Source: a virus. From it: a stretch of DNA of 13,291 nucleotides. The stretch's first letter is position 1, and every line of letters begins with the position of its first letter. Location of the stretch: the UHGV virus genome UHGV-0257054; one strand, written 5' to 3'. Of this stretch, positions 66-11,294 are shown one piece after another. A model generated the notes under the pieces. That model made no database searches. It saw only the letters and a list, made by a program, of their open reading frames with translations, and was not told where the DNA came from. Made by a program: the position numbers and the translations under genes.

Positions 66-499
66 GCAGAATAACCGCGATTATCTCCGCTCTGGTTATC
101 TGCGTCATCGTCTGCCTTTCATGGGCGGTTAATCATTACCGTGATAACGCCATCGCCTATAAAGACCAGCGCGACAAAGCCACATCCATCATCGCTGATA
201 TGCAGAAGCGTCAACGTGATGTAGCAGAACTCGACGCCAGATACACAAAGGAGCTTGCTGATGCTAACGCTACTATCGAAAGCCTTCGTGCTGATGTTTC
301 TGCTGGGCGTAAGCGCCTGCAAGTCGCCGCCACCTGTGCAAAGTCAACGACCGGAGCCAGCAGCATGGGCGATGGAGAAAGCCCAAGACTTACAGCAGAT
401 GCTGAACTCAATTATTACCGTCTCCGAAGTGGAATCGACAAGATAACCGCGCAGGTTAACTACCTGCAGGAGTACATCAGGACTCAGTGCCTGAAATAA
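62..499 (+). CDS. Rz: Rz-like i-spanin (inner-membrane spanin subunit)
   Basis: 145 aa with an N-terminal hydrophobic segment ([20 protein letters not shown]) followed by a charged, helix-prone periplasmic domain. Has a +1-frame embedded lipoprotein gene (Rz1). Lies after the endolysin 3' end. Confidence 0.85.
261..446 (+). CDS. Rz1: Rz1-like o-spanin (outer-membrane lipoprotein), embedded in Rz in the +1 frame
   Basis: ATG at 261 is preceded by AAGGAG at 248-253. Product [20 protein letters not shown]|[13 protein letters not shown]... has a signal peptide, a lipobox (VSAC) and a proline-rich mature part, as in lambda/P22 Rz1. The ORF track's 255 start is a TTG; the ATG at 261 is more likely. 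Confidence 0.8.
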
Positions 500-530
500 T
501 TTTTTTGCAAATCACAAAGTCAATTTAATG

Positions 531-553
531 AGCCTCGCGATGCGGGGCTTTTT
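531..553 (+). terminator. Rho-independent terminator candidate (first of a tandem pair)
   Basis: GC-rich stem GCCTCG/CGGGGC (one G-U pair), loop CGATG, then a run of five T (549-553), 32 nt after the Rz stop. Confidence 0.55.
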
Positions 554-560
554 GCAATAA

Positions 561-584
561 ATGCGTACCGCAACGCATGTTTTT
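561..584 (+). terminator. Rho-independent terminator candidate (second of a tandem pair)
   Basis: Perfect 6-bp stem ATGCGT/ACGCAT with loop ACCGCA, followed by GTTTTT. An A-tract lies upstream (CAATAAA). Confidence 0.5.
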
Positions 585-699
585 ACACCGAACCTGCCCC
601 TTTGGAATGGGCCTTTGAGGATACCAGTTAGTGCTGGCGAGCCTCGGTGGGCTGGTTTCCTGTGCGGCAAAGGTTCATTTCAAAGAGTAGGTACACGCT

Positions 700-1197
700 A
701 TGAAATCATTAACCCTCTTCAATCAACCAATTCGTATCGGTGAAGATGGCATGATCTGCCTCACTGATATGTGGAAAGCCAGTGGTAAAAGTGAATCTGA
801 ATCTCCGTACCACTACCTGCGAAACAAGCAGACCAAAGAGTTCTTAGCCGAGCTGGAGAAAAACCACGAATCTGTGGTTTTTACTGAGCGCGGTGTACAC
901 GGTGGAACATATGGCGGGAAGTTTGTTGCTTACGATTATGCGGCTTGGTTAAACCCCGGGTTCAAGTACGCGGCCTATAAAGTCCTCGATGACTACTTCA
1001 CCGGAGAACTTCAGCATCGCAACAGCTTAAGTGCGCAGCTCAACATGAAATGTCATGAGTTTGACCAGAAGAAAGACATGGCGAGCTTCTGCGGACAAGG
1101 ACTGGCGGCATGGCGCTATACGAAGCCAGTGTTGGTCGCTGAGATTAACTCCCTGGCTAACCAGCTGCAGATTACGATCCCCGGGCTTCCGGGATGA
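700..1197 (+). CDS. KilA-N domain protein (APSES-type DNA-binding domain; antirepressor/Bro-like family)
   Basis: 165-aa ORF. The N-terminal ~100 aa match the KilA-N pattern as I remember it (IRIGEDGMICLTDMWKASGK..., ...GTYGGKFVAYDYAAWLNPGFKYAAYKVL). Stop overlaps the next ORF's start in ATGA (1194-1197). Confidence 0.6.
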   Translation: MKSLTLFNQPIRIGEDGMICLTDMWKASGKSESESPYHYLRNKQTKEFLAELEKNHESVVFTERGVHGGTYGGKFVAYDYAAWLNPGFKYAAYKVLDDYFTGELQHRNSLSAQLNMKCHEFDQKKDMASFCGQGLAAWRYTKPVLVAEINSLANQLQITIPGLPG

Positions 1198-1451
1198 GTG
1201 ATCGTGTCATTGAATGCGCCTCCAGAGCGGGGCGCGACTTCTCAGAGTTCATGAAAGGCGAGAAGGGCATGATGGAAGCATTGGCCTCGGTGGATGAGTT
1301 TGGCGAGCAGCTGCGCCTCAACGGCTGTGTCAATCATCACTTTGTTAGCTACATGATGCGGAACTCGATCATGCAGGCATTCATGGACATGGCAAAAGCC
1401 GAGAGGAAAGAAGAGCGCCGGCGTAAGCGAGCGGAAGCAAAAGCGAAGTAG
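1194..1451 (+). CDS. Hypothetical 85-aa protein with a highly basic C-terminus, translationally coupled to the KilA-N gene
   Basis: ORF start overlaps the upstream stop (ATGA). C-terminus is KAERKEERRRKRAEAKAK. No family recognised from sequence. Confidence 0.5.
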   Translation: MSDRVIECASRAGRDFSEFMKGEKGMMEALASVDEFGEQLRLNGCVNHHFVSYMMRNSIMQAFMDMAKAERKEERRRKRAEAKAK

Positions 1452-1453
1452 CC

Positions 1454-1488
1454 ATTACAAAGCCTACCTACGGGTGGGCTTGATAATG
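1454..1488 (+). repeat. Copy A of a repeated hairpin element (ATTACAAAGCC ... CCTAC ... GGCTT-GATAATG)
   Basis: Begins 3 nt after the stop at 1449-1451. 9-bp stem AAGCCTACC/GGTGGGCTT (one G-U pair), loop TACG, immediately followed by GATAATG. A second copy lies at 2037-2075. Confidence 0.6.
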
Positions 1489-1677
1489 AAACCGGAGTTA
1501 ATTTCTGGTCACTAATTAACGGCAGTACAGCGATACAACCCAAGCCAGTAAGTGGGGAAATAACACTGGCAGCCACTGAAAGATGAACCTCCTGCCTTAT
1601 GGCAAAAAAGATTCTTTGTGGTGGCGGACTGATGGAAAGACATCCTAATCAAGCAACCACTCCACAGGGTCATAATT

Positions 1678-2034
1678 ATGAACGATCAGCAAATCGAAAA
1701 AGAAATCGTTGAGAAAGGAAAAACCGCTCCGCGAGTTACGCCTCAATATATCGAAAGCATCATTCTTGAAGAGCATTTCTTTACTGCTTATGACGGCATT
1801 CGTGCTGCCAATATGGGCGTTGGCGATTCATGGACAGCGCATAAATCTACAGACCTCCTGACTTTCTGCGTACTGGTGCTGAAGAATGGCTTCACCGTCA
1901 CCGGAGAGAGTGCCTGTGCAAGCCCGGAAAACTTTGATGCAGAAATTGGTCGGAAGATTGCCCGGCAGAATGCTGTAAACAAAATCTGGATGCTCGAAGG
2001 TTACTTGCTGAAGCAGAAGCTAAGCGAACAGTAG
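1678..2034 (+). CDS. Phage protein of the N4-gp49 / Sf6-gp66 family (function unknown)
   Basis: 118-aa ORF. The motif stretch ...TVTGESACASPENFDAEIGRKIARQNAVNKIWMLEGYLL resembles this family as I remember it. Recollection only, no alignment. Confidence 0.5.
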   Translation: MNDQQIEKEIVEKGKTAPRVTPQYIESIILEEHFFTAYDGIRAANMGVGDSWTAHKSTDLLTFCVLVLKNGFTVTGESACASPENFDAEIGRKIARQNAVNKIWMLEGYLLKQKLSEQ

Positions 2035-10799: not shown

Positions 10800-11294
10800 A
10801 TGATTTCACATGAAGAGTTGAAGCGTCATTTATCATATGACCCAGAAACCGGGGTTTTTACCCGAAAAATATCAAATACAGCGAGCGTCACCGTTGGTGA
10901 TGAAGCGGGAACCATGTGCACTGGTTATTTAAGGATAATGGTCTGTGGTAAGAGATACTTAGCGCATAGGCTTGCTTGGTTTTATATGACAGGAAAACCT
11001 GCAAATTGCTTAATAGATCATATTAACGGAGACAGAACGGATAACAGATTTTCAAATTTAAGATTGGCAAATAGATCCCAGAATGGGATGAACAGGAATA
11101 TTCAAAGAAATAATAAGTCAGGATATCCTGGTGTCTGTTGGCACAAAAATCTCTGCAAGTGGACTGTTTCTTTCAAGAAAAATAAAAAACAGGTTCACGT
11201 TGGATGCTTCGATGACCTGGACGAAGCTATCTCAGCATCAATGATGGCAAGAGCAGAAAATTTTGGAGAGTTTGCAAGGCAGAGGATTGAGTAA
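10800..11294 (+). CDS. HNH homing endonuclease with C-terminal AP2-type DNA-binding domain
   Basis: 164 aa. HNH motif region [43 protein letters not shown], followed by an AP2-like segment ([36 protein letters not shown]). Visibly AT-rich compared with flanking genes. Start is 2 nt after the gp10 stop; stop overlaps the gp26 ATG (TAATG). Confidence 0.85.

Follow-up and report, generated by a model that had tools for sequence, protein, structure and literature searches.

What do two overlapping genes located between the lysis genes and the terminase genes of the virus genome UHGV-0257054 do, and do their products act together? The first gene encodes a protein of 165 amino acids (aa) with a KilA-N domain and the second an 85-aa protein ending in a basic tail. 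The whole stretch of 13,291 nucleotides (nt) analyzed here (the window) is the late region of a P22-like (Lederbergvirus) coliphage of the CUS-3/HK620 kind, and CUS-3 is its closest relative (95.6% identity across 85% of the window). The pair corresponds to hkbK/hkbL of HK620, a phage published in 2001 the sequences of which have been in the databases since then, and the KilA-N assignment is routine. A preliminary description of this DNA had reported that the stop codon of the KilA-N gene overlaps the next start codon, and had considered a two-component regulator and a toxic protein with its neutralizer as possibilities that could not be distinguished. The overlap was confirmed from the sequence (1194-1197), the regulator is the option favored by the present data, and a toxin-antitoxin pair was not supported. 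The 85-aa family was found to be tightly juxtaposed to the 3' end of genes of the Bro network (KilA-N, Bro-N, Rha and Ant proteins) showing three different architectures. We tentatively propose, with a probability of about 45%, that the pair may be a two-part regulator of the antirepressor/Bro kind which belongs to the Bro network, is non-essential and is transcribed late.

Taken alone, the ATGA overlap is ordinary and not above chance, since 9 of the 16 gene junctions in the window measure 5 nt or less (two of the 16 are ATGA overlaps and two are 1-nt overlaps) and ATGA junctions are frequent in lambdoid phages (PMC8022706). What goes beyond chance is that members of the 85-aa family are consistently placed close behind the 3' end of Bro-network genes, the architectures of which are of three kinds: in 98 of the 100 full-length loci, the 3' end of a Bro-network gene directly abuts the 85-aa gene. 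The abutting partners in these 98 loci are KilA-N+ORF11CD3 genes (82), KilA-N+P63C genes (8), Rha genes (3) and truncated copies (5); in the two exceptions, the upstream open reading frame (ORF) is disrupted or was not recovered, and one of them (L006) carries a frameshifted KilA-N gene. Since most of the 100 loci are near-identical, the weight of this result rests on the three independent architectures and on the several genomic positions at which the abutting pair occurs, namely after the lysis genes, among the tail genes and in the immunity I (immI) region, in several genera. Mere adjacency resulting from the compact packing of phage genes, with no functional meaning, would explain why junctions of this kind are the norm here and in the lambdoid phages, but it is hardly credible in view of the conservation across architectures, positions and genera. 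The constant 3' coupling of this family to three Bro-network architectures appears to be undescribed so far.

In the first architecture, that of the window, the upstream protein carries the KilA-N and ORF11CD3 domains and the junction is ATGA. HK620, ECP1, PhiR49_1, the Shiga-toxin (Stx) phages 1717 and 2851 and Ss-VASD have the same junction at the same position after Rz, and their proteins are 96-100% identical to those of the window; these copies differ in their flanks, which belong to P22-like, lambda-like and Stx-phage backbones, and no structural difference was found in the pair itself. No function has been described for these copies, which are annotated 'KilA-N domain-containing protein' and 'hypothetical protein', as they are in Escherichia coli. 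In the second architecture, that of HK97 gp73 with HK97p61, a P63C domain replaces ORF11CD3 in an upstream protein of 242-251 aa whose KilA-N domain is only 23% identical to that of the window, and the junction is TGAtcATG or GTGA. This context was found in HK97, mEp234, HK022, KP12, Klebsiella phage ST11-VIM1phi8.1, Scandinavium, Raoultella and Trabulsiella; in HK97 and its homologs in mEp234, HK022, ST11-VIM1phi8.1 and KP12, the downstream gene belongs to the same family (up to 97% identity), lies after Rz or within the tail genes and is tightly joined, as in the window. In the third architecture, found in the metagenomic contigs L110-L112, a divergent family member (P0177, E-value 1e-26) overlaps in ATGA a 234-aa Phage_pRha protein belonging to phrog_1726 ('anti-repressor'). 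The ATGA junction is also present in the Klebsiella copy. In the locus of Klebsiella phage ST11-VIM1phi8.1 (L113, 2752-3519), a 255-aa protein with no Pfam match overlaps the stop codon of the 85-aa gene by 4 nt, which makes a coupled string of three genes located beside an Arc/Arc/Bro-N+P22_AR_C module.

The substitution patterns indicate that both ORFs are genuine coding genes. The pairwise ratios of nonsynonymous to synonymous substitution rates (dN/dS) ranged from 0.04 to 0.31 in the 85-aa gene, reflecting purifying selection; in the KilA-N gene, the proportion of nonsynonymous differences (pN) was well below that of synonymous ones (pS) in all 10 pairs compared, dS being saturated in nine of them and dN/dS amounting to 0.17 in the tenth. 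The ATGA overlap is consistent with translational coupling of the 85-aa gene to the KilA-N gene, and no good Shine-Dalgarno sequence was detected upstream of the 85-aa start codon (cuuccgggAUG), as in most of the copies. In the 80 IMG/VR loci retrieved with an identical 85-aa protein, the 165-aa coding sequence ends without exception at the 85-aa start; one of these loci (L013) has a frameshift near the 3' end of the 165-aa gene.

The two proteins and their relatives

The KilA-N assignment made in the preliminary description was borne out by a Pfam profile search (57.6 bits versus a cutoff of 23.8, E-value 1.3e-15, model positions 8-106 of 107), and an ORF11CD3 domain was found in addition (50.5 bits versus a cutoff of 25, full 54-position model), located C-terminally to the Bro-network N-domain. 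In the AlphaFold2 model, the KilA-N domain is predicted to have an APSES-like beta/alpha fold, and the two helices of the ORF11CD3 hairpin run from residues 86 to 130 and 132 to 156. The 165-aa protein also matches phrog_129 ('transcriptional regulator', E-value 2.7e-61), and 92% of the query is covered by its alignment with D3 orf11, the founder protein of ORF11CD3. No meaningful match was obtained for either the 165-aa or the 85-aa protein in a sequence search of solved structures. ORF11CD3 occurs elsewhere behind other KilA-N, Rha and P22_AR_N N-domains, and the same KilA-N domain precedes other C-domains. The window protein thus resembles the members of the Bro/KilA-N/Rha/Ant domain-shuffling network (Iyer, Koonin and Aravind, 2002, as summarized in PMC10111431 and PMC8096241) in that an N-terminal DNA-binding-type domain is combined with an exchangeable C-domain; the difference is that the descriptions in PMC10111431 and PMC8096241 list no separate small subunit, whereas here a small family is coupled on the 3' side.

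The 85-aa protein matches phrog_875 from end to end (residues 1-85 versus positions 1-85 of the 85-position model, E-value 3.2e-54) and has no Pfam match. This family is narrow, since only 22 representatives were obtained at E<1e-3 in an exhaustive hidden Markov model search (1.84 billion sequences), with which a word-indexed search was concordant, and the annotated members are restricted to Enterobacterales. The AlphaFold2 model of the protein (mean predicted local distance difference test score 93.3) consists of helices 3-20, 26-42 and 48-84, the third of which is predicted to run on into the basic tail. This tail was present as previously quoted, ending in KAERKEERRRKRAEAKAK; it includes 10 lysine or arginine residues out of 20 (net charge +5.5), and its composition is conserved in the family. 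Hardly any variation was seen in helix 1 (ECASRAGRDFSEF) or in the turn GCVNHHF. Fold searches with the model gave only generic helical bundles. A zinc or disulfide site formed by C8, C45, H48 and H49 was considered and rejected, as C8 and the histidines are not conserved in the remote members. As regards natural fusions between the KilA-N and 85-aa proteins, only single frameshift or read-through artefacts were seen (P0001, P0002, P0004 and P0135).

The comparisons between profiles indicate homology between the 85-aa bundle and the N-terminal domain found in T5orf172 nuclease-like proteins, a relationship that appears to be undescribed as well. In two remote relatives, P0187 (164 aa) and P0190 (179 aa), the same bundle is located N-terminally to a T5orf172/MUG113 (GIY-YIG-like) domain; the 85-aa protein of the window matches the fusion family phrog_4284 (E-value 4.3e-6), the fusion proteins match phrog_875 (E-values 2.7e-9 and 4.5e-7), and the profile-profile alignment of the bundle with the T5orf172 N-domain by hhalign gave a probability of 97.7% and an E-value of 1.5e-12 over residues 5-68. 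Only the N-domain is shared, and no match to the catalytic-type domain (PF10544, PF13455) was found in the 85-aa protein of the window. The gene encoding P0190 lies between lysis genes and terminase, in the same slot as the window pair, and that encoding P0187 adjoins KilA-N+P63C, Arc, Arc and Bro-N genes. T5orf172 belongs to the Bro/KilA-N network, where the targeting of DNA is ascribed to the domains joined to it on the N-terminal side, and the satellite protein CapR is a stand-alone N-domain of T5orf172 endonucleases acting as a DNA-binding repressor (PMC8096241). By analogy only, CapR of PLE may be the closest functional counterpart of the 85-aa protein: both are small, stand-alone homologs of the N-domain of T5orf172 proteins encoded by mobile elements, a likeness that implies no sequence relationship between the two. 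They differ in that CapR, which uses cysteines, is a direct binder of DNA; the 85-aa bundle, by contrast, is acidic and has only one broadly conserved cysteine.

Near the start of the 85-aa gene, a block of 27 nt was found to be identical in all 10 enterobacterial copies compared, belonging to four lineages with dS>1, in which saturation is otherwise seen at the synonymous sites (11 copies were aligned by codon, and a DNA alignment was used in addition). The block is located at the recombination joint between alternative upstream genes; in the DNA alignment, the joint between the two KilA-N contexts falls in the first ~20 nt of the 85-aa gene. The block holds a 7-bp GC hairpin, the folding z-score of which (-1.0) is not significant. 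It might act as a linker in recombination, as an element for re-initiation or as a site bound by a protein.

A small helical ORF with a basic end (MTKTEYNRIDASLEYL...KMAANKRGVTK), which is unrelated to the 85-aa family, overlaps the stop codon of another KilA-N+ORF11CD3 gene by 4 nt (L101, 2501-3183), and the same small ORF is present, unannotated and with its ATG changed to ATA, in Erwinia phage phiEt88 (L100, 1190-1370). The first of these loci hints that an ORF11CD3 gene followed by a coupled small protein may be a recurring layout.

Accessory slot and transcription signals

The pair is 95-100% identical in HK620, ECP1, the lambda-like PhiR49_1, many Stx1/Stx2 phages, Shigella phage Ss-VASD and Salmonella phages. 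It was found in 389 of the 5,426 complete E. coli genomes (at least 80% query coverage), that is in ~7% or about 1 in 14 of them, Shiga-toxin phages included. The homology with the lambda-like and Stx phages extends from 500 to 1488 in the window (megablast; query position 989 corresponds to window position 1488), and that with HK620 and the Salmonella phages begins at ~695-700, at the start codon of the KilA-N gene, which forms the left mosaic boundary. The 3' end of a strong hairpin located directly after the 85-aa stop codon coincides with the right-hand boundary of the homology with the lambda-like and Stx phages. The mobile unit indicated by these boundaries therefore consists of the two genes and the hairpin. 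When the slot between Rz and terminase was compared over window positions 500-1700, it was found to contain a solo Rha+ORF11CD3 gene in CUS-3 (L117, 800-1915) and a solo KilA-N gene in ST104 (L093, 1752-2718), so that this slot is an accessory position in which Bro-network genes are habitually found.

A KilA-N+ORF11CD3 gene 96% identical to that of E. coli was observed in a Pasteurellaceae phage, Actinobacillus phage vB_Apl-pPE4 (L002, 1941-2566), which indicates a recent transfer across bacterial families. Rz, the frameshifted KilA-N gene and the 85-aa gene were also seen, with ~99% coliphage identity, on a 4-kb contig (L006) labelled as a metagenome-assembled genome of Candidatus Nanosynbacter (Saccharibacteria), which is probably a binning contaminant. 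On a Salmonella Kottbus contig (L097, 60-3534), a single lysis cassette is flanked by four Bro-network genes: a KilA-N+ORF11CD3 gene, a P22_AR_N+ORF11CD3 gene, a KilA-N+ORF11CD3 gene with a truncated remnant of the 85-aa gene, and another KilA-N gene. A role of the cassette in DNA packaging, which its proximity to terminase and the analogy with the HNH protein gp74 of HK97 might suggest, was rejected, because the cassette occurs with varied terminases (P22/Sf6-type, lambda Nu1/A-type, HK97-type and Stx-phage), with tail genes and in immI.

After Rz, an intrinsic-terminator-like hairpin is followed by a U-run (GAGCCUCGC-GAU-GCGGGGCUUUUU); the fold of positions 525-560 has an energy of -14.6 kcal/mol (z-score -3.2). 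This hairpin would mark the end of the lysis cassette, and Q-modified RNA polymerase would have to read through it. No sigma-70-like promoter was found on the + strand between positions 500 and 700 in a crude scan. Because of this terminator and the lack of a + strand promoter ahead of the pair, we infer that the pair is probably transcribed late, in a Q-dependent manner, by terminator read-through. Of the features expected of a moron, a promoter of its own upstream was not found, and the hairpin after the 85-aa gene (which has no U-run) and the presence/absence polymorphism (replacement in CUS-3) were.

These data also bear on the possibility that the two genes form a toxin-antitoxin or kil/anti-kil pair, in which one product, either the KilA-N protein (as a toxin like P1 KilA) or the small protein, would be neutralized by the other. 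The KilA-N domain is common to P1 KilA and the 165-aa protein (29.8% identity over residues 17-127), the two genes are tightly coupled, and the small partner, part of which is basic, is similar to some antitoxins; on the other hand, P1 KilA is unlike the window protein in its C-terminal part and in its genomic context. The pair has no promoter or operator of its own in the region scanned, the left mosaic boundary lying at the start codon, and no toxin or antitoxin family was matched in Pfam, NCBIfam or PADLOC. Nor do the two genes co-occur obligatorily: an intact KilA-N gene lies next to a broken partner in viable phages (HK97, pPE4 and the Salmonella Kottbus contig) and relatives are commonly solo. 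In addition, the real toxin-antitoxin pairs (HicAB, HigBA) seen close by in related loci look different. A toxin-antitoxin pair is therefore very unlikely.

Possible roles of the pair

In the two-part regulator that we propose, the pair would be an accessory cassette, dispensable for virion building, sitting in the variable slot between the lysis and terminase genes; having no promoter of its own, it would be transcribed with the late operon through the terminator after Rz. The first product would be a Bro-network protein, the KilA-N domain of which may bind DNA while the ORF11CD3 alpha-hairpin most likely mediates oligomerization or partner binding. The second product, a predicted three-helix bundle with a basic helical tail, would be made by translational coupling to the first, the 85-aa family being a putative dedicated companion of Bro-network proteins. 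The two proteins might act jointly, in association with DNA, on the expression of genes of the phage or of a co-resident mobile element, and not on virion assembly.

Antirepressor-type regulation is pointed to by the immI-like neighborhoods of the relatives. In contigs L110-L112, the cluster Arc/Arc/P22_AR_N-Ant/Rha/small gene has the same layout as P22 immunity I (mnt, arc, ant), and members of the 85-aa family lie in or beside Arc/Mnt-Ant immI-like modules in three phage contexts other than that of the window, among which are this cluster and the Arc/Arc/Bro-N+P22_AR_C modules of L113 and L107. The window pair differs from P22 immI in its location between Rz and terminase and in that no Arc/Mnt genes or operators lie nearby: no Arc-like gene was found anywhere in the window, so that the pair is not placed under Arc/Mnt control as P22-type Ant is in immI, and neither protein had a Pfam match to the P22-type Ant domains (P22_AR_N, ANT, P22_AR_C).

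Several observations weigh against a joint regulator. No common C-terminal sequence was found among the three upstream partner types, and a single shared docking surface is therefore not obvious. The HK97 copy of the 85-aa gene is frameshifted after residue 54, and only a 22-codon stump of this gene is left in Actinobacillus phage pPE4; conversely, the distant KilA-N+ORF11CD3 genes of D3 (orf11), ST104 (orf45), SPN3UB and a Vibrio phage are solo and work without an 85-aa partner. The bundle (residues 1-65) is acidic (isoelectric point 5.2), which is unusual for a DNA-binding domain, and the near-invariance of helix 1 would be explained no less well by a target that does not vary, for instance a host factor. 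The late timing depends on the crude promoter scan. Lastly, nothing was found about the function of either gene or of the 85-aa family in the searchable literature, which is incomplete, including that on ORF11CD3, P63C, HK97 gp73, PhiR49_1 and the mEp phages.

Several of these points fit the main rival explanation, namely that the two genes have independent functions: the 85-aa protein would be a separate small effector, binding for instance a conserved host protein via helix 1, which forms no complex with the KilA-N protein and borrows the upstream ribosomes. Helix 1 would then be near-invariant while the C-terminal halves of the upstream proteins are unrelated; the 85-aa gene and the downstream hairpin do recombine as a module of their own, and both the acidity of the bundle and the frequent solo occurrence of KilA-N+ORF11CD3 proteins are in line with this explanation. 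However, all three partner types belong to the Bro/KilA-N/Rha network, no outsider occurs in 98 of the 100 loci, and the distant T5orf172-fused relatives are likewise members of this network. We regard independent functions as possible, though less probable than a two-part regulator.

A more specific form of joint action, which is speculative and which we consider doubtful, is based on the analogy with CapR. The 85-aa family might be a so far unrecognized, detachable subunit of the Bro/KilA-N/Rha network, that is a stand-alone T5orf172 N-domain, which docks onto varied Bro-network proteins and redirects or stabilizes them on nucleic acid via its basic tail; temperate phages would thereby have a modular system in two parts for antirepression or for conflicts with co-resident prophages and satellites. 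Among the accessory genes of temperate phages and of large DNA viruses, those encoding Bro-network proteins are some of the most common, and to our knowledge few of these proteins have a demonstrated function. If the 85-aa protein were a dedicated subunit, tests on single 'antirepressor' genes could miss their activity, and a new module would be added to the known domain network, linking it to T5orf172 nuclease-type proteins.

Lastly, the cassette might serve in conflicts between genetic elements (anti-satellite activity, superinfection interference, defense or counter-defense), its targets being the DNA or the regulators of competing phages, prophages or satellites and not the program of the phage itself. 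The slot is hyper-variable and the cassette passes from one type of phage to other, unrelated ones, an Actinobacillus phage included; the KilA-N protein gave a weak PADLOC match to the candidate defense family PDC-S22; T5orf172 relatives serve in phage-satellite conflicts (PMC8096241, PMC8263062), and antirepressor modules of the kind found near the relatives mediate prophage crosstalk (PMC3121763). However, the 85-aa protein had no PADLOC match, no defense-island context was found, and the apparent expression from the late operon argues against a defense expressed in the lysogen. Such a role is unlikely on the whole; it describes the biology of the cassette and is compatible with a mechanism involving either a two-part regulator or an independent effector.

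Features of the window

The coordinates of the features discussed above are given in Table 1. On the + strand, the genes are arranged in the following order: Rz with the embedded Rz1, the pair studied here, an Sf6-gp66-family gene, a DUF2560 gene, the small and large terminase subunits, portal, scaffold, coat, the gp4-like and gp10-like genes, an HNH_3/AP2 endonuclease, the tail needle, and the gp14-like and gp7-like genes. No Rfam families or tRNAs were found in the window.

Table 1. Positions of the genes, domains and signals in and around the gene pair
Feature	Position (nt)	Residues	Strand	Remarks
Rz1 lipoprotein (o-spanin) gene	255-446		+	+1 frame inside Rz; Pfam Rz1, E-value 2.3e-20; ordinary arrangement
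Intrinsic-terminator-like hairpin and U-run after Rz	532-556		+	GAGCCUCGC-GAU-GCGGGGCUUUUU
Gene for the 165-aa KilA-N+ORF11CD3 protein	700-1197		+	ORF, ATG start; equivalent of HK620 hkbK
KilA-N domain	724-1002	9-101 of the 165-aa protein	+	Pfam PF04383; predicted beta/alpha DNA-binding fold
ORF11CD3 domain	1024-1182	109-161 of the 165-aa protein	+	Pfam PF10549, E-value 2.4e-13; predicted long antiparallel alpha-hairpin
ATGA start/stop overlap	1194-1197		+	1190-1199 is cgggATGAgt; ATG 1194-1196 over TGA 1195-1197
Gene for the 85-aa protein	1194-1451		+	ORF, ATG start; equivalent of HK620 hkbL; phrog_875
Predicted acidic three-helix bundle		3-65 of the 85-aa protein	+	
Invariant 27-nt block	1215-1241		+	TGCGCCTCCAGAGCGGGGCGCGACTTC; covers codons 8-16 of the 85-aa gene, among them the rare AGA (Arg)
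Predicted basic helical tail	1389-1448	66-85 of the 85-aa protein	+	Ends in KAERKEERRRKRAEAKAK
Strong hairpin directly after the 85-aa stop	1453-1488		+	-20.9 kcal/mol, z-score -4.4; no U-run

Between the gp10-like head-completion gene and the tail-needle gene, the window carries a gene encoding a 164-aa endonuclease with HNH_3 and AP2 domains (10800-11294). This gene is absent from CUS-3, where the gp10-like and tail-needle genes abut, and it has the appearance of a homing-endonuclease gene inserted into the virion module.

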